A stretch of 64,000 nt of DNA from Patescibacteria group bacterium (GTDB taxonomy: Bacteria > Patescibacteriota > CPR2 > UBA1875 > CAIMLA01). The position numbers and the translations under genes are program-made. The notes beneath the pieces were generated by a model. It did no database searches. It saw only the letters and a list, made by a program, of their open reading frames with translations, and was not told the DNA's origin. This document shows, piece after piece, positions 17,780 to 54,714 of this stretch; within the stretch, counting starts at the first letter, position 1; every line of letters begins with the position of its first letter. Where the stretch lies: contig JBGSPL010000001.1 in the NCBI GenBank assembly GCA_041738615.1, forward strand, positions 10,706 through 74,705, given 5' to 3'.

Positions 17780-17808
17780 TTGTGCAAAGAGGGGATTTGT
17801 GTTATAAT
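17780..17808 (+). promoter_or_regulatory. promoter with extended -10 (TTGTGC-17-TGtTATAAT) driving GC-rich cassette 1
   Basis: TATAAT at 17803-17808 preceded by TGn. Weak -35 TTGTGC 17 nt upstream. Confidence 0.5.
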
Positions 17809-17932
17809 CTTTTTTGTCAATCTGTACCCAAACCAATCGATTGGAGGATGAGGCCGATGCCTCACGATGCAAGTCCGTAGGATGGTCCTGCCCAAAGAGG
17901 GGACCAGAAACTACGGAAGTAATAGGGGAACC

Positions 17933-18139
17933 ATGTTCCAGACGGAAGATGAGCGGCGTATGTCGCTCGAACAGGCGCTTCGTGAAGTCGAGTACTTCAT
18001 CGCCAAGGGCGAAGCCTATATTAGGGAGCACGTTGATCACCTGGTGAAGGTTCTTACCCCGCATCACGAGGAGCCGGCTATCCAGGAGTTCGTCTCCAAC
18101 TACCAGATCGAGCTTGCAACCGAGACCGTCGAGTCGTAG
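17933..18139 (+). CDS. hypothetical small protein (68 aa) in GC-rich cassette 1
   Basis: AGGGGAA SD, then ATG at 17933. The predicted protein has helical character (MSLEQALREVEYFIAKGEAYIREHVDHLVKV...). The ORF-track start at 17867 lacks an SD. Confidence 0.45.
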   Translation: MFQTEDERRMSLEQALREVEYFIAKGEAYIREHVDHLVKVLTPHHEEPAIQEFVSNYQIELATETVES

Positions 18140-18157
18140 CCGAAAGGAACTGTAGTC

Positions 18158-18376
18158 ATGACGGGGTCCACTTGCACTGAAAGCACGCATGTCCCGCTTG
18201 CAGAGGCTGATCCGCTCACCCTCGCGCGTCGCATGATGCGACACTACGTGGAGGGTGAACACAACCGTCCGATGTCGGACATCTGCAAGCGAGTCTACGC
18301 AGGCTGGATGCGTGATCACGTCAGTGATCCCGACATCGCCGCCTTCGTGGAACTTCACGGTCTTCAGGCTGCCTAG
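18158..18376 (+). CDS. hypothetical small protein (72 aa) in GC-rich cassette 1
   Basis: AAAGGAA SD upstream of the ATG, 18 nt after the previous stop. No family recognised. Confidence 0.4.
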   Translation: MTGSTCTESTHVPLAEADPLTLARRMMRHYVEGEHNRPMSDICKRVYAGWMRDHVSDPDIAAFVELHGLQAA

Positions 18377-18527
18377 CGGTCTGATCGATTAGGTTTACTG
18401 ACTTCCAGGCAACCCGTGATGGGTCCCTGAGGAAGATAGAGGTTGGTAAGGTGGAATACACTGTCCCGTAGGTGATTGTTCCGAGCTTTCGGAGCATGAT
18501 ATGGCGCAGTCCCACCCGACCCATTAT

Positions 18528-32877: not shown

Positions 32878-33294
32878 ATGGAAACAAATCTAGAGGAAGC
32901 AAAGAAGTCTAAGATTCGCGAACAGGTCGGGATTTTGTTGGTTTGTTTGGTACTTGCTGGAAGTGGGGTGCTCCTGCTCAAGGAAAAACCAGAATCTGGG
33001 ACTATGAGCTTTTCTTCTGGCAATGGCAAGGTTTTGGAAGCCAATTCGAACGCATCTACGAAATCATCAGCCAATTCCTCAGCAGCTGAGCCAGCAATTT
33101 CGACGAAGATAAATATAAACACGGCTTCGCTCGAAGATTTAGATAAACTCCCCGGGGTTGGTCCAGCAACGGCACAGAAAATAATCGATTATCGAAACCA
33201 GAACGGACTGTTTCCGAGCATTGAGGCTATTGATGGCGTCTCTGGTATTGGCCCCTCGAAGTACTCACAAATGAAAGACATGATAAGTATTTAG
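32878..33294 (+). CDS. comEA: ComEA-family helix-hairpin-helix DNA-binding protein
   Basis: TM anchor plus HhH motif INTASLEDLDKLPGVGPATAQKIIDYR. Confidence 0.85.
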   Translation: METNLEEAKKSKIREQVGILLVCLVLAGSGVLLLKEKPESGTMSFSSGNGKVLEANSNASTKSSANSSAAEPAISTKININTASLEDLDKLPGVGPATAQKIIDYRNQNGLFPSIEAIDGVSGIGPSKYSQMKDMISI

Positions 33295-33305: not shown

Positions 33306-33334
33306 TTGAAATAATTCCATTTTTGGCTTAGAAT
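33306..33334 (+). promoter_or_regulatory. sigma70-like promoter (TTGAAA-17-TAGAAT) for the PurH-domain cassette
   Basis: TTGAAA at 33306-33311 and TAGAAT at 33329-33334. Confidence 0.55.
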
Positions 33335-33368
33335 GCCCTCACGCTGTCAGCTGGAGGGAGGGTTGTTA

Positions 33369-33971
33369 ATGGAAAAGCGACATGCGTTGCTCTCTGTCTT
33401 TGACAAGACGGGGATTGTTGAGTTCGCAACTGGACTCGTGAGTTTCGGTTTCGTGTTGATTGCCTCAGGGGGTACTGCGGCGGTTTTGCGCGAGGCTGGG
33501 CTCGAAGTGATTGATACGGCCGACCTTGTTGGTGGCCCGATTCTCGGGCATCGTGTCGTCACGCTGTCTCGCGAGATTCACGCCGGTATCCTGGCCAAGG
33601 ACAACGAGGAGGACCGAGCGGAGCTTGCACGGCTCGGCATCAACTTCATCGATCTCGTGGGGGTAGACCTTTACCCGCTCGAAGGTATGGTCGAGAAGGA
33701 AGGGGTCACAGAGGCGGAGGTCATCGAGATGACTGATGTCGGTGGTCCGACGATGCTACATGCGGCCGCAAAGGGTCGCCGCATTGTGGTCACACCTCAG
33801 GACTACGATGAGGTCCTCGACTGGCTCGGTCAGGACGAGCCTGACCCTGTCGAGTTCCGGCGGAATCTGGCCTTCGTGGCAGAACTCACGGCACTGGAGC
33901 ACCTCGAAGCCTCGGCTGCGTACATCGCCAAGGTTGCGGGGATCGAATTCGTCGACGACGAGGAGGACTAG
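33369..33971 (+). CDS. stand-alone PurH-type IMP cyclohydrolase (MGS-like) domain protein
   Basis: Clear similarity to the N-terminal domain of bifunctional PurH (ALLSVFDKTGIVEFA, ASGGTA, GGPILGHRVVTL..HAGIL, VDLYPLE, DVGGPTMLHAAAKG). GGAGGGAGGG SD 5 nt before the ATG at 33369. No AICAR-transformylase domain follows. Confidence 0.75.
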   Translation: MEKRHALLSVFDKTGIVEFATGLVSFGFVLIASGGTAAVLREAGLEVIDTADLVGGPILGHRVVTLSREIHAGILAKDNEEDRAELARLGINFIDLVGVDLYPLEGMVEKEGVTEAEVIEMTDVGGPTMLHAAAKGRRIVVTPQDYDEVLDWLGQDEPDPVEFRRNLAFVAELTALEHLEASAAYIAKVAGIEFVDDEED

Positions 33972-34952: not shown

Positions 34953-35000
34953 GGAATGCAGGAACCCCTTCCTGTCATTCCGACCGGAGTGGAGGAATCT
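34953..35000. repeat. composite hairpin repeat of the GTCATTCC...GGAATC family (member R5)
   Basis: GGAATGCAGGAA-CCCC-TTCCTGTCATTCC-GACCGGAGTGGA-GGAATC, immediately after the trxA stop. Confidence 0.6.
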
Positions 35001-46420: not shown

Positions 46421-48511
46421 ATGCCTAGAGAATATTCACTCGAAAACACAAGAAACATCGGAATTGCCGCTCATATCGATGCTGGTAAAACCACTGTAAC
46501 CGAGCGTATCCTATACTATACTGGTCGTACTCATAAGATCGGTGAAGTGCACGAGGGTGCAGCTACTATGGACTGGATGGAGCAGGAGCAGGAGCGTGGT
46601 ATTACTATCACATCCGCAGCGACTACTTGTTTTTGGGCTGGTCATCGTATCAACATTATTGACACACCAGGTCACGTAGACTTTACCGTAGAGGTAGAGC
46701 GTTCTTTGCGCGTATTAGACGGTGCGGTCGTAGTATTTGACGGTAAAAATGGTGTAGAGCCTCAGTCCGAGACTGTATGGCGCCAGGCCGATAAATATCA
46801 TGTTCCACGTATCGCTTTTGTAAACAAACTTGACGCTATCGGCGGCGATTTCTATATGTCGCTGGAATCTATCAAGGAACGTCTCGGTGCCAATGCAGTT
46901 GCTATGCAGCTGCCTATCGGTATGGAGTCTGGCTTCTCTGGTGTTGTAGACCTCATGGAGATGCGTTCGATCAACTACGGTAACGAGGATATGGGCAAAG
47001 AGCAGCATATCGCCGAGATTCCTGCTGACATGCTCGACAAGGCCAATGAATATCGCGCTATTATGGTAGAGAAAATTGCCGAAACCGACGACGCTCTTCT
47101 CGAGAAGTTCTTCGACGGCAAGGAAATCACTGTACCAGAACTCAAGGCTGCGCTTCGCAAGGCTACTATCGCCAACGAAATCGTGGGTGTTTTTGCCGGT
47201 ACTGCGCTTAAAAACAAGGGTGTTCAGCCAATGCTTGACGCCGTTATCGATTATTTGCCAAACCCGCTCGAGGTTCCTGCCGCTCATGGTGAGGACCCAA
47301 AGACTGGCGAGGAAGTAGCAGTAGAGAGTACCGATGATGGTCCTTTCTGTGGTCTTGTTTTCAAGATTGCTGCCGACCCATTCGTCGGTAAGCTTGCTTT
47401 CTTGCGTGTTTATCGTGGTCGCCTTGCTTCTGGAAGTTACGTTCTAAACGTAGCCACTGGGGAGAAAGAGCGTATCGGACGTATCGTTCGCATGCACGCC
47501 AACACCCGCGAAGAAGTGAGTGAAGTTTTCTCAGGCGAGATCGCTGCTGCAGTAGGTCTCAAGAATACTCTTACCGGTAACACTATTTGTGATCCTACCC
47601 ACCCAGTATTGCTCGAGAATATTACTTTCCCAGAGCCTGTGATTCAGGTTGCCATCGAGCCAAAGACCAAGGCCGACCAAGAGAAGATGGGCATCGCCCT
47701 CTCTCGTCTCGCCGAGGAAGATCCTACTTTCCGCGTCCATACCGATGAAGAAACAGGCCAGACTATCATAGCTGGTATGGGTGAGCTTCACCTCGACATT
47801 CTTGTCGACCGTATGAAACGCGAGTTCAAGGTAGAAGCAAACGTAGGTAAACCTCAGGTTGCTTACCGTGAGTCTATCAAGGGCAAGGTTAAACAGGAAG
47901 GTAAGTTCGTACGTCAATCTGGTGGACGTGGTCAATATGGTCATGTTTGGATCGAGATTGAGCCTAACGAAGAAGGTCTAGGATTCGAGTTCATCAATAA
48001 GATTGTTGGTGGCGCGATTCCAAAGGAATACATCAATCCAGTACAGAACGGTATCCGTGAAGCACTAGACAACGGTGTTATTGCTGGTTATCCAGTAGTA
48101 GACGTCAAGGTTACTCTCTATGACGGTTCATTCCACGAGGTAGACTCGAACGAAATGGCCTTCAAGATTGCTGGTTCCATGGCGCTTCAGGAGGGTGTCC
48201 GCAAGGCGACTCCTATTATTCTAGAACCAATTATGAAGGTAGAAGTTACCGTACCGGAAGAGTATATGGGTGATATTATGGGAGACCTCAACTCGAAGCG
48301 TGGACGCATTCAGCAGATGTCGGACCGCGGCAATGCCAAGATCGTAGACGCTTTCGTCCCACTAGCTGAGATGTTTGGCTACGCTACAAACTTGCGTTCT
48401 ATGACTCAGGGTCGTGGCACTAGTACAATGGAATTTGACCACTACGAAGAAGTTCCAGGAAACGTGGCTGCTGAGATTATCGCGAAGCGTGGTAAGAAAC
48501 AGGCAGAATAA
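46421..48511 (+). CDS. fusA: elongation factor G
   Basis: G-domain motifs [18 protein letters not shown], and domains II-V. Confidence 0.97.
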
Positions 48512-48878: not shown

Positions 48879-48907
48879 TTGATTATTGCTCTATTTTGGC
48901 ATATAAT
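48879..48907 (+). promoter_or_regulatory. near-consensus promoter (TTGATT-17-TATAAT) at the head of GC-rich cassette 2
   Basis: TTGATT at 48879-48884 and TATAAT at 48902-48907. Confidence 0.6.
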
Positions 48908-48960
48908 CGCGGTCAGTAGTTTACAGAGCATGGGTTGACTTGCCCAGAGAGGGGAATCGT

Positions 48961-49131
48961 ATGCCGCAAGAAACTGCTGCTCCGGCTTGGATCGGATGGG
49001 TGCTCCTTCTAATCCCCACCGCCATGATCTTCATTGGACCCATGGCGTACAAGAGGCGCGATGACGTAAGAGCTTCGTGGCAAAGGCCGTCAGAGGATGA
49101 GATTAACCGATCGATTGGGTATCGCGGTTAG
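48961..49131 (+). CDS. small hydrophobic protein (56 aa, one TM helix), cassette 2
   Basis: GAGAGGGG SD 7 nt before the ATG at 48961. Sequence WIGWVLLLIPTAMIFIGPMAY followed by a basic tail. Confidence 0.4.
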   Translation: MPQETAAPAWIGWVLLLIPTAMIFIGPMAYKRRDDVRASWQRPSEDEINRSIGYRG

Positions 49132-49196
49132 CCCCGTCTGATAGGTAGTCAAAGGCGAGCGCGCCCCCCGGTGCGCACCTGACGAGAAGAGGGGAC

Positions 49197-49328
49197 ATGA
49201 AGAGGATACTGAGTGATTTGTGGTGGACCTTGGTGGTCTACCTGGTCTGCTCCATTGTCTGGGCCGTTTGTGGCCTGGCTTCGGTCGGGATCGTTCCTGA
49301 CCAGATTGGCGCCGACGAAGGCGCCTAG
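49197..49328 (+). CDS. small hydrophobic peptide (43 aa, one TM helix), cassette 2; not in the ORF track
   Basis: ATG at 49197 after AAGAGGGG. MKRILSDLWWTLVVYLVCSIVWAVCGLASVGIVPDQIGADEGA. Confidence 0.35.
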   Translation: MKRILSDLWWTLVVYLVCSIVWAVCGLASVGIVPDQIGADEGA

Positions 49329-49347
49329 CGCCAGAATGGAGTAGACC

Positions 49348-49593
49348 GTGAGTAAGGTCATAGTCTCCCTGCCGGGAGGTAAGGCGATATTCACAGAGGA
49401 GCTTCCTCGGGAAGCAACGACGGTTTCCGTCGAGTATGCCCAGAGGCTCGTGGATCAGCTCGGGAAGACCGACGGGAGGAACTACCAGCTGTGCACTAAG
49501 CCTCAAGTCGCGAGCGACGAGGACGAGGAGCGCAATCTGCTTCCTGGAGATGTTCTCATCAGCATCGCCGATTTTGGTCCTCGTACAAACTGA
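49348..49593 (+). CDS. hypothetical protein (81 aa, GTG start), cassette 2
   Basis: GGAG SD 6 nt before the GTG. No family recognised. Confidence 0.4.
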   Translation: MSKVIVSLPGGKAIFTEELPREATTVSVEYAQRLVDQLGKTDGRNYQLCTKPQVASDEDEERNLLPGDVLISIADFGPRTN

Positions 49594-49658
49594 GGCCGTC
49601 CACGGCACATCCAAACGCATGTTGGGATGTCGCCGGTGGCGGCCTCTCAACATATATA

Positions 49659-49687
49659 TTGTCAAGAATGCTTATCCATAGTAAGAT
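49659..49687 (+). promoter_or_regulatory. candidate internal promoter (TTGTCA-17-TAAGAT)
   Basis: AT-rich 60-nt spacer inside the GC-rich cassette. Moderate match to consensus. Confidence 0.35.
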
Positions 49688-49753
49688 ATCGCCATCGACG
49701 TTAGTGTCACTTGTGTGCGCCTAGCGGCGTGCACCTACCAAGGGGGGGCGGGG

Positions 49754-50233
49754 ATGATGAAACGCTGGTTACTCGACGGCTTGCAAGTGCTTGTGTTGTC
49801 AGCCGTACTGACAGCGGCTTGTTACGCGCCGGTTTTTGCCGGCATCTGGCTCTACGGGGTCATCGGGGGCTTGAACCTGTTCGTACTGTTCCTGGCTGTG
49901 GCTGTTGTGGCCATTCGCATCGCACTCTCACCACATGGTTTCGTTGAGCGTTCAGCGGACCTGTGGCTTGCAGCTGTGGGCATGTCGCTCGCGGCGCTTG
50001 AGATGTGGAAGCCGCTTCTCACTACAGTCGTCTGCTGCGAGTACTTCATGTTCATGGCAGTGCTCGGCTACGGTGCTCCAGTCTGGTTGCTCGGACTTCC
50101 GGTCGCGATTTGGCCGGTACTGCCACTGCTGGTTTTGGCCAGCACGTTGCTTCTCGGGATGTTCATCATGCTGGAGGCAGAGGGCGACGAATTCTCCGAC
50201 ACCAGCGAGCTGGCGCGGTCGTTCGGCCACTAG
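49754..50233 (+). CDS. hypothetical polytopic membrane protein (about 159 aa, 4-5 TM helices), cassette 2
   Basis: AGGGGGGG SD before the ATGATG at 49754. Strongly hydrophobic with an acidic C-terminus. Confidence 0.5.
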   Translation: MMKRWLLDGLQVLVLSAVLTAACYAPVFAGIWLYGVIGGLNLFVLFLAVAVVAIRIALSPHGFVERSADLWLAAVGMSLAALEMWKPLLTTVVCCEYFMFMAVLGYGAPVWLLGLPVAIWPVLPLLVLASTLLLGMFIMLEAEGDEFSDTSELARSFGH

Positions 50234-50304
50234 GGACACCAGTGTCTCAGGTTCCGGAGGTCCTGCAACGTAGGTTGTGGGGCCTCCGGAAGAGAGAAAA
50301 ATAC

Positions 50305-51713: not shown

Positions 51714-52034
51714 ATGGCTGAGAAAAACGAAAAACAGAGGATCCGAATCAAACTAAAGGCGTACGACAACAAGATTATCGACCAGTCGACAACACAGATA
51801 ATCGAGACAGCAGTGCGCAGTGGTGCTAAGGTGGCGGGACCTATCCCACTACCAACAGATAGGACTCCTATCACTGTAAACCGCGCGAGCAACGTCAACA
51901 AGAACGCACGAGAACAGTTTGAGATGCGGGTGCACAAGCGCCTCATAGATATCACTGACTTCACAGCGAAGACAGTGGACAGTCTGATGAGTCTCTCACT
52001 TCCAGCCGGAGTAGACATCGAAATCAAAATGTAA
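51714..52034 (+). CDS. rpsJ: 30S ribosomal protein S10
   Basis: GAAGGAGA SD before the ATG at 51714. S10 signature [11 protein letters not shown]. The ORF-track start at 51687 lacks an SD. Confidence 0.95.
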
Positions 52035-52043
52035 TAGTAAAAA

Positions 52044-52064
52044 AGCCCCTTCGGGGGCTTTTTT
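52044..52064 (+). terminator. rho-independent terminator immediately after rpsJ
   Basis: AGCCCC-TTCG-GGGGCT followed by TTTTT. Confidence 0.8.
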
Positions 52065-52077
52065 GATTACCGGTATA

Positions 52078-52108
52078 TTGTCATTCCTGGTAGTAAGTCA
52101 GGGACCCA
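52078..52108. repeat. hairpin repeat R4 (tGTCATTCCtgg-TAGTAAG-tcagGGAcCC)
   Basis: Near-identical to R3. Confidence 0.55.
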
Positions 52109-52118
52109 GCCTTTCCAA

Positions 52119-52146
52119 CGTCATTGCGAGCGAAGCGCGGCAATCT
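52119..52146. repeat. hairpin repeat R8 (cGTCATTgCgagc-GAAGC-gcgGCAATCtccc)
   Basis: Same architecture, with ATTGC/GCAAT replacing ATTCC/GGAAT. Confidence 0.45.
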
Positions 52147-52153
52147 CCCTGTC

Positions 52154-52178
52154 CGTCATTCCATCGTAGACTGGAATC
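52154..52178. repeat. hairpin repeat R7 (cGTCATTCCatc-GTAGAC-tGGAATCc)
   Basis: ATTCCA/TGGAAT stem. Confidence 0.55.
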
Positions 52179-52213
52179 CATTACTAGCGGATTAATCTTA
52201 GCGTTATTCCTTC

Positions 52214-52241
52214 GATACCTTTCTCTTGAAAGAAAGGTATC
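52214..52241. repeat. perfect 11-bp-stem hairpin GATACCTTTCT-CTTGAA-AGAAAGGTATC
   Basis: Perfect inverted repeat with the same GATAC...GTATC ends as 48660..48689. Confidence 0.6.
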
Positions 52242-52379
52242 CCAAAGTTCAAGAAAAATCGAACTCCCTCGTCTCTGTACGAAATTTTACTGAGCAAGCT
52301 CGCAATAATTTCTAGCATTCGACGATAGCCGGGCGCGCGGCACCGAGCGATTTTTCGGGGGAGTTGGAAGCGAATATTA

Positions 52380-52408
52380 TTGACAAAACGGCAATTTAGT
52401 ATTAAATT
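52380..52408 (+). promoter_or_regulatory. promoter at the head of GC-rich cassette 3 (TTGACA-17-TAAATT)
   Basis: Perfect -35 at 52380-52385. The TAAATT -10 is identical to the rpoB promoter -10. Confidence 0.5.
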
Positions 52409-52482
52409 ATAGTGTCGTCATAGCCCCGATGGCTATTTCGACGCACGTTGACGTTAATTCACGACACCAGGAGGTGTTTGCG

Positions 52483-52935
52483 GTGCCAAACGCTGGTCCT
52501 CGCACCGAAAAGACGGCCGGCGTGAAGCGGCCGAACTGTTTTTGGGTGGCTGTCTTCGAGGTGCTTACCGGTGGGAAGAAGTACCGCGTTGATTTCGCGG
52601 TGAGTCGTTCACAGAAGGACGCCTATCTGGCGGATGGTCACGATTCCTCTGTCGATCGCAACTACTCTCATCTGATATGCGCAAAGCTCAGGGATGAGCA
52701 CGGAGTTATCGTTGAGATTCTTGCACCGAGCCAGTTTCGCTTGATTGAGTTCCATTCACGCGATGCCGGTTCGATGTCCACCGAGGAGTTGGCCCGAATC
52801 ATGCGACGGACCGAGAAGAACACCGCCGAGACTGCTGCAATCGTGGCTGCTCACAACGATAAGAAGGCGGCCAAAGAGAAGGCTAAACGCCAGAGGATAA
52901 CCCGTACTGGAGATGGGCAAGCCGAGCTCTTCTAG
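52483..52935 (+). CDS. hypothetical protein (150 aa, GTG start), cassette 3 gene A
   Basis: AGGAGG 8 nt before the GTG at 52483, in frame with the ORF-track ORF 52429..52935. Lys/Ala-rich C-terminus. No family recognised. Confidence 0.45.
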   Translation: MPNAGPRTEKTAGVKRPNCFWVAVFEVLTGGKKYRVDFAVSRSQKDAYLADGHDSSVDRNYSHLICAKLRDEHGVIVEILAPSQFRLIEFHSRDAGSMSTEELARIMRRTEKNTAETAAIVAAHNDKKAAKEKAKRQRITRTGDGQAELF

Positions 52936-53010
52936 CCTTTGGCTCGCGCTCACAAGGATTTGCGTTTAGGGATGTGCCCAAACGTGAAACAGCACAGAGA
53001 GGGGAGTCGC

Positions 53011-53334
53011 GTGAACGAGCTGGAGCAGTTCTACGCGCATTTGCGGTTCTTCATCCGTGAAGGGCCGAAGTACGTCGTTCCTGGCAAGGAGAGTTGCCCC
53101 GAGGTTACCCTCGACACTCTCGTAAGGCAGGGCATGGAGCTCGAGCCTGAGCTTTGGGGCAATGAGACACAGACTCGCGAGATCATCTTTGGACTTCGCG
53201 GCATGGACCTCGCAGCCTGGGAGGTTTTTGCTCGCAAGAATCCCGAGGGTTTCAAGCGGCTCAAGTCGGCCTACGACTACGAGGAGGCGTTCCATATCGC
53301 GATGTCTCGCGAAGAGGCCGCCAAGAAACGCTAG
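53011..53334 (+). CDS. hypothetical protein (107 aa, GTG start), cassette 3 gene B
   Basis: GAGGGGAG SD 4 nt before the GTG at 53011, in frame with ORF 52939..53334. No family recognised. Confidence 0.4.
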   Translation: MNELEQFYAHLRFFIREGPKYVVPGKESCPEVTLDTLVRQGMELEPELWGNETQTREIIFGLRGMDLAAWEVFARKNPEGFKRLKSAYDYEEAFHIAMSREEAAKKR

Positions 53335-53344
53335 TGACGTCAAC

Positions 53345-53393
53345 GTCGACGACCGTGGGCGGTGGGGGAAACCCCGCTGCCCACGTCGACCAA
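53345..53393. repeat. 49-bp GC-rich hairpin-forming direct repeat, copy 1
   Basis: GTCGACGACCGTGGGCGGTGGGGGAAACCCCGCTGCCCACGTCGACCAA. GTCGACG/CGTCGAC outer stem, imperfect inner stem around a GAAA loop. Confidence 0.8.
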
Positions 53394-53460
53394 TTTAATA
53401 CTCTATATGGTACGAACAGTGCCACCAACGACGTCAAACCCCAGGAAGGGGTGTGGCTTT

Positions 53461-53883
53461 ATGACTGCAGGAATCGAGGAACTCATCCGAATCATCAACG
53501 ATTCGCGTGAGGGCAAGCATTTCGAGCTGACGTCACTGACTGTGATGTTGCTTACCGAAGGTAAACCGGACGGGGTCTTCTCTAGCTCGGTTCCCTTCCG
53601 CTACATCATCGAGTGCCTTCTCGACGGGTTTGAAGGCGCTTGGGTCAACGTACTCAGCGAGCGTCACCTCGACGAGGGGTACCAGGAGCTGTTGGCCCTG
53701 ACACCGTTTGGTGGTAAGCAGCTGCTCTTTGCCACTCACACTTCAGTGGGCCTTTCTTTGGAAGGGTTCGAGTTCCTGATGTGGGACGACGAGGGACACC
53801 TGCGGACACCCGAACGGGTAAAGGCTCAGTTCGGCAACGATGCCCTGGGTTGGCTTGAAGCCTGGGTTTACGAAGCTTCCTAG
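53461..53883 (+). CDS. hypothetical protein (140 aa), cassette 3 gene C, bracketed by the 49-bp repeats
   Basis: AGGAAGGGG SD about 10 nt before the ATG at 53461. Acidic. No family recognised. Confidence 0.45.
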   Translation: MTAGIEELIRIINDSREGKHFELTSLTVMLLTEGKPDGVFSSSVPFRYIIECLLDGFEGAWVNVLSERHLDEGYQELLALTPFGGKQLLFATHTSVGLSLEGFEFLMWDDEGHLRTPERVKAQFGNDALGWLEAWVYEAS

Positions 53884-53889
53884 CTTGAC

Positions 53890-53938
53890 GTCGACGACCG
53901 TGGGCGGTGGGGGAAACCCCGCTGCCCACGTCGACCAA
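53890..53938. repeat. 49-bp GC-rich hairpin-forming direct repeat, copy 2
   Basis: 49 of 49 identical to copy 1. Ends 5 nt before the rplC promoter -35. Confidence 0.8.
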
Positions 53939-53943
53939 AATAG

Positions 53944-53972
53944 TTGACATTTGTGAGTATTTTATATACAAT
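53944..53972 (+). promoter_or_regulatory. promoter for the rplC-led S10/spc block (TTGACA-17-TACAAT)
   Basis: TTGACA at 53944-53949 and TACAAT at 53967-53972, followed by a ~120-nt leader. Confidence 0.55.
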
Positions 53973-54090
53973 TGTTCTTGCGTAAAAAGATATATTCGCA
54001 AAAAACCATCGGGGGATGGGCAAGTCTACACAAGGTTGTAGAAACTGTCTGTCTGTCGAATAGTATTATATTGATTAAAAAGGATGAACA

Positions 54091-54714
54091 ATGAAGGCAT
54101 TGATCGGTAAGAAAATCGGAATGACTCACATCTTTGACGAGAAGGGTACTGTTGTACCCGTGACCGTTGTAGAGGCGGGTCCATGTACTGTTGTTCAGGT
54201 GAAAACACCAGAAGTTGACGGCTATAGCGCTGTTCAGCTCGGTTTTGGCTTGGACAAACGTATCAACAAGCCACTGGCCGGGCACGTCAAGAGCTCTGGC
54301 GCAGTGCCAAAAGTGCTTCGCGAGTTTGACCTCGTAGAGGTAGCTCCCGAGGGGGAAGAAGCGGTAACCATCAAGGTTGGCGACGTTATTGGCGTCGATA
54401 CCTTCGAAGTTGGCCAGCTTCTAGCTGCTACAGGGACTTCTAAAGGCAAAGGTTTCGCAGGTACTGTAAAGCGTCACAACTTTACGACCGGACCAAAGAC
54501 TCATGGCTCACACAACTATCGTGCGCCAGGATCAATCGGTGCTGGTTACCCACAACACGTCATGAAGGGCATGCGTATGGCAGGCCACATGGGTGCCGAG
54601 AAGGTAACTGTGAAGAACCTAGAAATTATTAGTATCGATAAAGAAAACAATACACTTGCGATTAAGGGAGCTATTCCTGGTCCACGCAAGGGGATTGTGG
54701 TGCTGAGAGGTTAA
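54091..54714 (+). CDS. rplC: 50S ribosomal protein L3
   Basis: L3 signature and operon position. Confidence 0.95.
   Translation: MKALIGKKIGMTHIFDEKGTVVPVTVVEAGPCTVVQVKTPEVDGYSAVQLGFGLDKRINKPLAGHVKSSGAVPKVLREFDLVEVAPEGEEAVTIKVGDVIGVDTFEVGQLLAATGTSKGKGFAGTVKRHNFTTGPKTHGSHNYRAPGSIGAGYPQHVMKGMRMAGHMGAEKVTVKNLEIISIDKENNTLAIKGAIPGPRKGIVVLRG

Follow-up and report, generated by a model that had tools for sequence, protein, structure and literature searches.

A probable moron-like array of GC-rich orphan gene cassettes with exchangeable cargo in a fixed slot before the rplC promoter in a clade of Saccharibacteria

Organization of the rpsJ-rplC region

The window analyzed here, a 64-kb stretch of a bacterial chromosome, covers the str-S10 region, with rpoC, rpsL, rpsG, fusA, tuf, and r-protein genes as neighbors of the segment described below. 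All features are on the + strand. The genes for ribosomal proteins S10 (rpsJ, 51714..52034, taken from the ORF list and from a Pfam Ribosomal_S10 match on an identical protein) and L3 (rplC, 54091..54714; Pfam Ribosomal_L3) form the boundaries of this segment and are separated by 2,056 bp, from the rpsJ end at 52034 to the rplC start at 54091. Past rpsJ there is an intrinsic terminator with a GC stem, a UUCG loop, and a T run (52040..52066; -19.7 kcal/mol, z = -3.96), followed by three short REP-like hairpins with GTCATTSC heads (52080..52180; starts at 52080, 52120, and 52155), a motif that is also found 3' of rpsG, fusA, and a gene near position 34974. Next comes a conserved noncoding block (52205..52375), which contains two hairpins, at 52214-52241 and at 52328-52357; the second is GC rich and, with its T run, resembles a terminator. 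This block shows ~80% identity in the relatives L002 and L094 and is kept in L094 although the cargo genes there are unrelated.

The predicted cassette promoter, TTGACA-17-TAAATT (52380..52408; 10 of 12 matches in a consensus scan), is near-identical in L002 and conserved in L094 and L095. Beside the predicted transcription start, the sequence contains a 5'-UTR stem-loop (52414..52442); equivalent hairpins with other stems are present in L002, L094, and L095, and the one in L095 is part of the minimum-energy fold. Three ORFs follow, each with a Shine-Dalgarno (SD) sequence ahead of its start: ORF1 (52483..52935, GTG start), ORF2 (53011..53334, GTG start), and ORF3 (53461..53883, ATG start). 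A hairpin repeat (copy 1, 53343..53393) and a spacer that includes the ORF3 5' UTR (53394..53460) lie between ORF2 and ORF3, and a second copy of the repeat (53888..53938) ends 5 nt before the predicted promoter of the rplC operon, TTGACA-17-TACAAT (53944..53972; 11 of 12 matches), which is conserved in every locus of the clade that was read. The rplC leader has a conserved stem-loop (54009..54059) of 17 pairs, 5 of them with compensatory changes, in 7 genomes; an Rfam search with it gave no match. The promoter and terminator calls are consensus matches backed by conservation.

A preliminary description of this DNA had reported, from inspection of the letters, a spacing of ~2.05 kb, a terminator near 52044-52064, a tract of hairpin repeats after rpsJ, promoters at 52380 and 53944 (the latter 5 nt after a repeat), and three ORFs of 150, 107, and 140 aa with SD sequences. 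All of these were recovered at or near the positions given, and the hairpin tract resolved into the REP-like hairpins and the conserved noncoding block. We regard the segment as a genuine protein-coding accessory transcription unit that would be insulated on both sides from the ribosomal genes.

Coding potential and predicted products

A coding signal, whose absence would have spoken against the preliminary description, is present. In the comparison of the window with L002, ORF1 has a dN/dS of 0.19 and ORF2 one of 0.30, versus <0.02 for the flanking genes, and an excess of differences at the third codon position in the annotated frames is seen in 5 independent pairs, including ORF3 against its homologue in L084. 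Remote protein homologues are detected at E values of 1e-13 to 1e-31, with 30-43% identity and conserved motifs; the ORF2 homologue in L084 is weak (E values of 2e-4 to 2e-3). There is next to no probability that the islet is a noncoding, GC-rich array of structured RNA and hairpins, in which a low density of stop codons creates spurious ORFs. Long ORFs are indeed found on both strands of such islets, ORF1 to ORF3 share one frame with open spacers, and folding z-scores of whole units are strongly negative (-5.6 and -6.2), but the selection on the encoded proteins, their homologues, and the SD sequences speak for genes, and the local structure of the coding parts barely rises over background.

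ORF1 encodes a basic protein of 150 aa (pI 9.5; family P0008, P0009, P0010) with a small alpha/beta core at residues 20-93 (AF2 model, core pLDDT of 85-91), a Lys/Ala/Glu-rich helix, and a C-terminal G-Q-x-x-L-F motif. This motif is invariant in 5 of 5 family members, at or near the C terminus in 4, and its position 2 is not Leu. Sliding-clamp-binding proteins bind DnaN through a terminal QL[SD]LF-type pentapeptide, which we take the QxxLF end of ORF1 to resemble. ORF2 encodes an acidic protein of 107 aa with a homologue in L002 and a weak one in L084, and ORF3 one of 140 aa (pI 4.5; family P0004, P0005, P0007). All three products are soluble, fast evolving, and restricted to the clade; those of ORF2 and ORF3 are small and acidic.

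As in the preliminary description, no known family was recognized. Comparisons of ORF1 to ORF3 with Pfam (0 families), PADLOC (0 families), PHROGs (insignificant hits), and PDB sequences gave no match, NCBIfam gave only subthreshold matches (E values of 0.03 and 0.1, with bit scores far under the cutoff), none of the curated toxin, antitoxin, or defense protein models in PADLOC, Pfam, and NCBIfam matched, and no relatives of the ORF families were found in IMG/VR or INPHARED. These results make it quite improbable that the array is a conflict module of a known type, such as a toxin-antitoxin or antiphage operon with a basic ORF1 and acidic ORF2 and ORF3 kept at a safe site. The small basic and acidic gene pairs, their rapid evolution, their presence/absence variation, and the clamp-peptide-like end of ORF1 would fit such a module, but in loci L086-L091 ORF1 is found alone, with neither ORF2 nor ORF3.

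It is rather unlikely that ORF1, and perhaps ORF2 and ORF3, are lineage-specific translation factors, ribosome associated or regulating the operon, that are kept next to rplC for their function. ORF1 is only 56-61% identical in genomes whose S10 and L3 are 100% identical, none of the three families was found in the clade members L092, L094, and L095, the unit comes with a promoter of its own and with a hairpin ahead of rplC, and its codon usage is opposite to that of the r-protein genes. Fold scores were under significance, and the combination of similarity and r-protein-like conservation expected of an eL20/LX-like ribosomal protein was not found. We regard the cassette proteins as putative accessory factors of the conflict type and not as components of the translation machinery.

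Base composition

The G+C shift that had been estimated by eye is borne out by computation: GC is 0.55-0.58 in ORF1 to ORF3 versus 0.41-0.51 in the flanking genes, and codon usage follows suit, with GC3 of 0.62-0.75 versus 0.42-0.58 in the neighbors. The shift is not peculiar to this genome. In 13 of 13 loci with an L3 at least 65% identical, an islet of ~0.53-0.63 GC lies just upstream of rplC, in hosts of 0.36-0.49 GC, and its GC peak exceeds that of rplC-rplD by 0.10-0.23; the excess averages +0.025 over 111 more distant loci (95th percentile, +0.076). Neither local RNA structure nor GC2 accounts for the steady islet GC of ~0.59, and no outside donor was found beyond the clade or in IMG/VR.

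The window has two sister slots of the array. The GC-rich islet between fusA and tuf (48879..50300) carries two promoters and genes for small membrane peptides, an 81-aa protein, and a 159-aa multipass membrane protein, with homologues in the same slot of L002. The islet between dnaE and rplS (17790..18400) comprises a promoter of its own along with two small ORFs.

The slot and its cargo in related genomes

The preliminary description had assumed that rpsJ and rplC are normally adjacent. This holds for non-CPR outgroups (gaps of 18-128 bp) but not for the class studied here: among the fetched loci with both genes, 44, the window and L002 included, have a gap of at least 500 bp, with a maximum of 4.9 kb and ordinary genes inside. 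The junction is usually split in Saccharimonadia, and adjacency is not conserved there.

An exhaustive HMMER search of 1.84e9 representatives returned only 6 relatives of the ORF families, and all those with usable context lie between rpsJ and rplC or inside such an array. The family members P0008, P0009, and P0010 (ORF1) are all directly upstream of rplC, as is P0004 (ORF3) in L084/L085. At the same place and with the same GC, L002 has ORF1 and ORF2, L084/L085 have ORF2 and ORF3, and L086-L091 have ORF1. The relatives thus share gene families, position, and GC with the window, a result that the preliminary description had itself named as a refutation of its insertion reading. The module must therefore have been in place before these genomes diverged and is no recent acquisition here. 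What stands of the earlier idea of an acquired module is the distinct composition, the promoter of its own, and the split between rpsJ and rplC; the "acquired" flavor survives in another form, as the slot before rplC is a long-lived site of turnover of GC-rich orphan cargo.

Evidence of this turnover comes from a clade sample of ~9 distinct genomes or contigs, mostly MAGs or short contigs. The UTRs of one L094 unit (L094a) and of L095 are 82-84% identical, whereas the ORFs between them are unrelated, their nucleotide identity (29.5%) being at the level of the codon-shuffle null. L172 has an ORF3-family gene placed after a platform of the type seen in the other L094 unit (L094b). The hairpin and ORF3 5' UTR of the window are 73% identical to positions 653-762 of L172, where an unrelated ORF lies downstream. 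Each unit has its own conserved promoter in the window (52380), both L094 units, L095, and L172, and hairpin or platform copies are repeated within a genome in the window and in L094. Part of the cargo differences could reflect divergence past recognition, not replacement.

Hairpin repeats and the absence of ORF3 from the closest relative

ORF3 is bracketed by a direct repeat whose two copies are identical at 51 of 51 positions, with 0 matches in shuffles; the preliminary description had the identity right and gave the length as 49 bp. The element occurs twice in 64 kb, both times in the array. It folds into a 13-bp stem with two G-U pairs and a GAAA loop, an outer GTCGAC stem, and a 4-nt bulge, and lacks a U tract. 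The G-U pairs make the + strand fold the more stable one (-39.4 kcal/mol, versus -31.3 kcal/mol for the - strand). The flanks of the hairpin are ACGTCGACGACC ... ACGTCGACC, with no GTTRRRY core. The sequences that follow the two cassette hairpins, CCAATTTAAT and CCAAAATAG, do not form the U tract of a canonical terminator, which the rpsJ terminator has. The architecture (an outer 6-bp stem, a 4-nt bulge, and an inner stem of 11-13 bp) is kept in the window, L084, and L172, with the same flanks and different stem sequences. Of two independent short-read contigs that end near the repeat, L001 and apparently L003, the former begins inside repeat copy 2.

The closest relative, L002, lacks ORF3 and has a single, hybrid hairpin, flanked on the left as copy 1 is and on the right as copy 2 is. 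The outgroup L084 has the order ORF2-hairpin-ORF3-rplC. Given this order and the hybrid flanks in L002, a deletion in L002 is a simpler reading than the insertion of ORF3 suggested by the preliminary description. Most likely, the two hairpin repeats recombined and ORF3 was thereby lost from L002, an event for which homologous recombination of the ordinary kind is sufficient.

Recent horizontal insertion of a foreign three-gene module between adjacent rpsJ and rplC, with ORF3 arriving last through a repeat-generating insertion, would agree with the high GC3, the separate promoter, the orphan genes, and the perfect repeat around an ORF3 that is absent from L002. It is largely refuted by synteny and is a very improbable reading: ORF1 and ORF2 are at the same place in L002, where the dS of ORF2 (0.71) is within the range of the flanks; ORF2 and ORF3 homologues stand in the same order before rplC in L084 and ORF1 homologues before rplC in L086-L091; the junction is split in most Saccharimonadia; and the 1.84e9 representatives contained no donor.

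Complementarity between 5' and 3' untranslated regions

A 10-nt element upstream of ORF1, ACGTTGACGT (52445..52454), is complementary to ACGTCAACGT (53337..53346), which is located past ORF2 and abuts hairpin copy 1 (shuffle p = 0.004). The ORF3 unit has a similar 9-nt pair, CGACGTCAA (53429-53437) in the spacer and TTGACGTCG (53885..53893; p = 0.005), and its long-range helix is present in the minimum-energy fold. In the 11 units found upstream of rplC, the complements are 10, 9, 8, 6, 8, 12, 7, 9, 9, 8, and 9 nt long and differ in sequence. Complementarity of 8-12 nt is seen in 9 of the 11 (shuffle p of <0.001 to 0.03), versus a longest 5'-3' complement of 7 nt among 59 core genes. The element sequences covary between genomes, and the long-range helix is part of the minimum-energy folds of whole units. 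The 5' elements begin 18 to 48 nt before the start codon, upstream of the SD sequence, so that the predicted pairing would not cover the ribosome-binding site. Such complementarity is absent from the fusA-tuf and dnaE-rplS islets, and the platform model therefore leaves some islets uncovered. The complementary elements could also be a DNA-level inverted repeat instead of an RNA pairing.

Comparison with known systems

The closest likeness is to the "morons" of lambdoid and Mu-like phages, extra units of DNA between conserved genes (PMC4378225). As in morons, one or a few ORFs are flanked by a promoter of their own and a terminating hairpin, they are placed between genes that are adjacent in relatives (here, the outgroups), their composition is unlike that of the neighbors, and they vary in presence between close relatives. 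Unlike morons, the units reside in a bacterial chromosome with no phage genes nearby, in a fixed slot that is filled in every member of the clade; they share a UTR and hairpin frame with 5'-3' complementarity, and their GC offset lasts over deep divergence and so is not a mark of recent arrival.

The array also resembles integron arrays in its tandem small ORFs, many of them orphans, each with an imperfect hairpin behind it that is conserved more in structure than in sequence, in cargo order and content that vary between relatives, and in the independent assortment of cargo and site (L094a versus L095; L172 versus the window and L094). If the GTCGAC-stem hairpin were a folded single-strand recombination site served by a recombinase encoded elsewhere, this would explain the modular, shuffled cargo, the copies within a genome, and the constant architecture with variable stems. 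Such an integron-like system seems unlikely to us: the window has no IntI or attI; the hairpin lacks RYYYAAC/GTTRRRY cores; the cassettes have promoters and conserved 5' UTRs of their own with no common Pc; no excision circles were seen; exchange boundaries lie no more than ~10 nt from the start and stop codons; and the family members all stay in one chromosomal slot. In addition, the G-U asymmetry of the hairpin favors RNA on the coding strand, and the deletion in L002 needs only the repeats.

Pairing between 5' and 3' regions also occurs in other bacterial mRNAs, such as hbs of B. subtilis and the hok mRNA with its fold-back element. In Staphylococcus aureus, the icaR mRNA is regulated by 5'UTR-3'UTR base pairing (PMC3868564). 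Like icaR, the cassettes have a short 3'-UTR element that is complementary to their own 5' UTR and adjoins a 3' hairpin, and the predicted fold loops the mRNA. Unlike in icaR, the 5' element is upstream of the SD sequence, not over it, and the predicted pairing is common to a set of exchangeable cassettes, not to one gene. REP/BIME hairpins and U-less ("I-shaped") terminators are likewise stable GC hairpins past stop codons, repeated within a genome, that can stabilize upstream mRNA and serve as recombination substrates between copies; the 51-bp element differs from REP/BIME in its restriction to the array, its conserved outer-stem flanks, and its coupling to a complementary 5' element. Finally, the locus is similar to flexible genomic islets in that conserved core genes of relatives enclose, at a constant position, an accessory content that varies, yet it is very small (0.4-2 kb), lies within the genome's most conserved operon cluster, and combines a uniform, host-independent GC with a conserved expression frame.

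Proposed organization and mechanism

Our preferred reading, to which we assign a probability of roughly 0.6, is a clade-specific, moron-like array of GC-rich orphan cassettes in a fixed slot before the rplC promoter, with a conserved expression frame and exchangeable cargo. The rpsJ terminator would halt upstream transcription, and the sigma-70-type promoter at 52380 would launch an mRNA with a 5' stem-loop, in which a short 5'-UTR element may pair with an element just past the stop codon and each unit would be closed by a long GC hairpin that lacks a U tract. Together, this 5'-3' helix and the hairpins at the two ends might yield a closed mRNA, nuclease resistant or processed by RNase, which would set cargo expression independently of the r-protein operon, while rplC would restart from its own promoter and structured leader. 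In this reading, promoter, UTRs, and hairpin form a conserved "platform" and the ORFs a swappable cargo. As the platforms are repeated within and between genomes, recombination between them would delete, add, and reshuffle cargo. Between genomes, natural transformation is a likely route, with the ultraconserved flanking genes or the platforms as homology arms. Against this reading, Pfam scans of the cassette ORFs and the nonhousekeeping ORFs found no recombinase or transposase in the 64-kb window, so that the exchange mechanism is inferred.

More tentatively, and at less than even odds, the locus may represent an undescribed cassette system of Saccharibacteria in the str-S10 region, defined by a frame of promoter, 5' stem-loop, 5' element, SD block, complementary 3' element, and U-less hairpin, with ORFs that are swapped almost up to their start and stop codons (~10 nt at most remaining) and no integron-type recombinase involved, mRNAs closed by 5'-3' pairing, and a cargo pool of ~59% GC that is independent of the host.

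Implications

Saccharibacteria are epibionts with reduced genomes. Most of their lineage-specific genes lack a known function, and to our knowledge almost nothing has been reported on gene gain and gene exchange in this group. One clade keeps its turnover pool of fast-evolving orphans at a constant position just before the rplC promoter, where it is easy to locate, and such orphan genes are prime candidates for functions in host interaction or conflict. The assumption that rpsJ and rplC are adjacent is unsafe in this class, a caution for arguments from synteny. Seemingly vertical genes here hold a GC 10-23 points over that of the genome across deep divergence, and the means by which they do so can now be addressed. 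The parts of the expression frame (promoter, UTR pairing, and hairpin) are defined well enough to be tested directly and may be borrowed as genetic tools, and Saccharibacteria can now be transformed (PMC10633639).

Organization of the rpsJ-rplC interval

The window represents a chromosome segment of a member of the Saccharibacteria (class Saccharimonadia) and encodes rpoB/C, rpsL/G, fusA, tuf, rpsJ, and the S10-spc ribosomal genes; its genome is present in sample SRR28170474. The rpsJ gene ends at position 52034 and is followed by a canonical terminator with a T run (52040-52066; -19.7 kcal/mol), three short REP-like hairpins with GTCATTSC heads, a motif also found 3' of rpsG and fusA, a noncoding block (52205-52375), and a TTGACA-17-TAAATT promoter at 52380. 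Three ORFs, each with its own Shine-Dalgarno (SD) sequence, come next: ORF1 (52483-52935), ORF2 (53011-53334), and ORF3 (53461-53883). A perfect 51-bp direct repeat occupies 53343-53393 and 53888-53938, and a near-consensus rplC promoter lies at 53944, 5 nt past the second repeat copy, with rplC itself starting at 54091. The cassette, terminator, promoters, and repeats of the preliminary description were all located in the sequence; the sole correction concerns the hairpin repeat, whose two copies are identical, as stated, but measure 51 bp rather than 49 bp.

REP-like hairpins (GTCATTSC ... GSAATC) are found at positions 34974, 46366, 48522, 48596, 52080, 52120, and 52155, in each case right behind the stop codon or terminator of a gene (rpsG, fusA, rpsJ, or one near 34.9 kb). 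The noncoding block is better conserved than the cassette ORFs. One hairpin lies in it at 52214-52241 and a second, a terminator-like GC hairpin followed by a T run, at 52328-52357; the block may encode a small RNA or serve the cassette promoter as a regulatory region. The rplC leader contains a stem-loop (54009-54059) of 17 pairs, 5 of which show compensatory changes among seven genomes of the clade. This stem-loop, a candidate r-protein autoregulatory leader placed before rplC rather than rpsJ, matches no Rfam family, and an Rfam search (E values up to 1) over 48.4 to 54.3 kb returned two matches, both at chance level.

Composition and coding status of the ORFs

The G+C content across the three ORFs is 0.55 to 0.59, compared with 0.41 to 0.51 in the neighboring genes, and the shift is located at synonymous sites (GC3 of 0.62 to 0.75, with ordinary GC2), which bears out the compositional difference claimed for the cassette. 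In the closest relative, L002 (GCA_964501135.1), S10 and L3 are 100% identical to those of the window; ORF1 and ORF2 are 56 to 65% identical, with dN/dS ratios of 0.19 and 0.30, respectively, and the flanking genes show dN/dS below 0.02 at dS of 0.2 to 0.8. Third codon positions hold most of the differences in five independent gene pairs. By these comparisons, the cassette ORFs are genes. Their products are all soluble, basic in the case of ORF1 (pI 9.5) and acidic for ORF2 and ORF3.

ORF1, ORF2, and ORF3 lie in a single reading frame with open spacers, broken only by TAG and TAG-TGA (52483-53883); likewise, homologs of ORF2 and ORF3 in the comparison locus L084 (positions 532-1584) share one frame across a 237-nt open spacer. 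An ORF1-ORF2-ORF3 fusion produced by TAG read-through was considered and dropped, as each ORF has its own SD sequence and the excess of TAG stops (9 of 10 genes in GC-rich islets versus 18 of 55 core genes) is in keeping with the GC3 bias.

An ORF1 model built with three homologs contains a confident 75-residue beta-beta-alpha-alpha-beta core (pLDDT 85 to 91), together with a helical stretch rich in Lys, Ala, and Glu and a flexible tail. Invariant features of the family are a PNCxWVA motif and G-Q-x-x-L-F near the C terminus; the latter resembles a sliding-clamp-binding peptide, which we take as a lead only. A single-sequence AlphaFold model of ORF3 was unusable (pLDDT 39.7).

Homologs and ancestry of the three families

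Searches of Pfam, PHROGs, PADLOC, and NCBIfam with all cassette ORFs gave nothing usable, in line with the first impression that they belong to no recognizable family. A word-indexed search of 5.8e9 proteins recovered nothing but self matches for the three ORFs, and PDB sequence profiles gave nothing significant for the ORF1 and ORF3 families. With profiles of all three families, no member turned up in 80 GTDB species loci or in 80 JGI loci from outside the clade; IMG/VR lacks the ORF1 and ORF3 families, and INPHARED matched ORF1 only at E values of 0.1 or higher. The sole informative matches came when the three concatenated proteins were run exhaustively with HMMER against 1.84 billion representatives, which yielded six relatives: P0004, P0005, and P0007 for ORF3 and P0008, P0009, and the cluster member P0010 for ORF1, with none for ORF2. 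P0004 is encoded directly 5' of rplC in L084/L085 (L3, 82% identical to that of the window), and P0008, P0009, and P0010 directly 5' of rplC in L086 to L091 (S10, ~83%; L3, 66 to 70% identical). In L084, a weak ORF2 homolog stands immediately ahead of the ORF3 homolog. From these contexts, the order ORF1-ORF2-ORF3-rplC is therefore collinear across lineages. The gene families are orphans tied to the slot before rplC, and the module is older than the split between the window and L002.

The order in L002 is ORF1, ORF2, a single hairpin, and the rplC promoter; the left flank of this hairpin corresponds to window copy 1 and the right flank to copy 2. With L084 as the outgroup, a 545-bp deletion in L002 through recombination between the repeats would be the parsimonious reading, rather than an insertion in the window.

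The assumption that rpsJ and rplC are normally adjacent fails in this class: 44 fetched loci having both genes, the window and L002 included, show a gap of at least 500 bp and up to 4.9 kb. The genes in these wide gaps are ordinary ones (NUDIX, CTP synthase, idi, and a small membrane protein); in non-CPR genomes from the same search, the gaps are 18 to 128 bp. The notion of a recently acquired module in a conserved locus is only partly supported: it holds for the distinct G+C content and separate promoter but, judging from synteny, neither for recent arrival nor for conserved adjacency. No donor of the cassette genes was found in the 1.84 billion representatives or in IMG/VR. Among 80 Saccharimonadia and outgroup species (L004 to L083), the lengths of the tuf-rpsJ, fusA-tuf, and rpsJ-rplC spacers all differ greatly, from 20 bp to 4.9 kb, and a membrane protein of 87 to 111 aa recurs between rpsJ and rplC in 18 species.

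GC-rich islets across the clade

In 13 of 13 loci whose L3 shares at least 65% identity with that of the window (assemblies in NCBI, ENA, JGI, and Logan that stand for roughly eight genomes), a GC peak lies within 1 kb upstream of rplC, 0.10 to 0.23 above rplC-rplD; the excess averages +0.025 among 111 more distant loci (95th percentile, +0.076). The peak is steady at 0.53 to 0.63 against host G+C of 0.36 to 0.49, and GC3 is 0.63 to 0.76 in ORF1 orthologs and 0.24 to 0.49 in the adjoining r-protein genes. Local RNA structure is not the cause of this host-independent value of ~59%, for which no donor was found: the coding parts have local z-scores of -1.36 versus -0.77 for core genes, a marginal gap, and a service of the GC richness to RNA structure was dropped as an explanation.

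Similar islets occupy the fusA-tuf gap in the window, L002, L086, and L095 and the dnaE-rplS gap in the window; ordinary genes of these gaps (e.g., HD-domain proteins and prs) have host-like G+C. The fusA-tuf islet of the window (48879-50300) has two promoters and encodes membrane peptides of 56 and 43 aa, an 81-aa protein, and a 159-aa multipass membrane protein, the last two with homologs in the same slot of L002; in L086, this slot holds five unrelated GC-rich ORFs (GC3 of 0.66 to 0.84). The dnaE-rplS islet (17790-18400) lies behind the dnaE terminator and contains a promoter of its own and two small ORFs (17933-18139 and 18158-18376); a new rplS promoter comes next. A GC-rich gene at 33333-33971 (GC3 of 0.68), between comEA (32878-33294) and tRNA-Leu, encodes only the PurH N-terminal/MGS-like domain and resembles phage PurH2-type genes (~40 to 46% identity). 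At the contig end of L084 (1-200, minus strand), an aldehyde-dehydrogenase-like fragment (0.57 GC) adjoins the cassette array; it could reflect a chimeric assembly or one more foreign gene.

Independent assortment of platform and cargo

From the noncoding block through the promoter to the start of the 5' untranslated region (UTR), the window, L002, and L094 are ~80% identical, and the ORFs of L094 and L095 are unrelated to ORF1 to ORF3. This distinguishes a platform (the frame of promoter, UTRs, and hairpin) from its cargo (the ORFs carried in it). L094a, a unit of L094, and its counterpart in L095 come from genomes with S10 proteins 97% identical. The two units have 5' UTRs 82% identical and the 3' UTR plus hairpin 83 to 84% identical, whereas their ORFs, 366 nt each, are unrelated, with a nucleotide identity of 29.5% that equals the codon-shuffle null; homology ends within ~10 nt of the start and stop codons. 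Locus L172 is a mosaic: an ORF3-family gene stands behind the platform that precedes L094b in L094 (79% identical), and behind that gene the window-type hairpin and ORF3 5' UTR (73% over 113 nt) stand before an unrelated 93-aa ORF, followed by an L094c-family gene (E value of 2e-32). Cargo and platform therefore assort independently.

Repeated platforms would recombine, leading to gain, loss, and shuffling of cargo. Homologous exchange between genomes is plausible because natural competence is established for Saccharibacteria (PMC10633639), comEA is present in the window, and fusA of L002 is mosaic; the window encodes no recombinase. The fusA comparison (L002 4126-6210 versus window 46421-48511) involves two otherwise near-identical genomes: residues ~100 to 400 are 38 to 72% identical and both ends are 86 to 100% identical, and fusA of the more distant L092, L094, and L095 is 92 to 94% identical to that of the window throughout. 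This suggests that the divergent segment of L002 was imported by recombination.

RNA-like features of the frame

Every unit closes with a long GC hairpin that lacks a U tract, with folding energies of -26 to -45 kcal/mol for the 3' regions. The window hairpin has a 13-bp stem with two G-U pairs, a GAAA loop, and an outer GTCGAC stem with a 4-nt bulge, and it is more stable on the coding strand than on the opposite one (-39.4 versus -31.3 kcal/mol). In L084 and L172, the flanks and geometry are kept and the stem sequences differ. Neither hairpin type occurs in IMG/VR, where a 17-mer from the SD block has 25 single matches, about the chance expectation by our own estimate.

In 9 of 11 units upstream of rplC, a 5' element located 18 to 48 nt ahead of the start codon is complementary over 8 to 12 nt to a 3' element that abuts the hairpin 1 to 19 nt past the stop (shuffle p from <0.001 to 0.03); by the same measure, 59 core genes of the window reach 7 nt at most. 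The elements vary in sequence between genomes: ACGTTGACGT in the ORF1-ORF2 unit and CGACGTCAA in the ORF3 unit of the window, ACGTCGAT in L086, GAACGTTTGAGT in L088, TTTTGTACC in L092, and GAACGTCGA in L094a and L095. Being common to L094a and L095, they belong to the platform and not to the cargo. A reading of the ACGTCGAC motif as a protein operator or terminal inverted repeat was dropped, as the complementarity persists in L088 and L092 despite unrelated sequences and L094a and L095 have the elements, but not the cargo, in common. When whole units are folded at minimum energy, the long-range helix forms together with the 5' stem-loop and the 3' hairpin (z-scores of -6.2 and -5.6). The mRNA would thus be closed at both ends and stabilized or processed; the complementarity could conceivably be an inverted repeat at the DNA level instead. 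It was looked for in the fusA-tuf and dnaE-rplS islets and not found there. An interaction between the 5' and 3' UTRs of one transcript has a precedent in the icaR mRNA (PMC3868564).

Overall interpretation

The best-supported reading is a cassette array of autonomous transcription units, moron-like by the published definition of morons (PMC4378225), that share a conserved expression frame and occupy a fixed slot before rplC in one clade of Saccharibacteria. The arrangement can be seen as a variant on morons, cassette arrays, and mRNAs with paired 5' and 3' UTRs. No description of it was found in the searchable literature, and there is a non-trivial chance that it represents a distinct cassette system.
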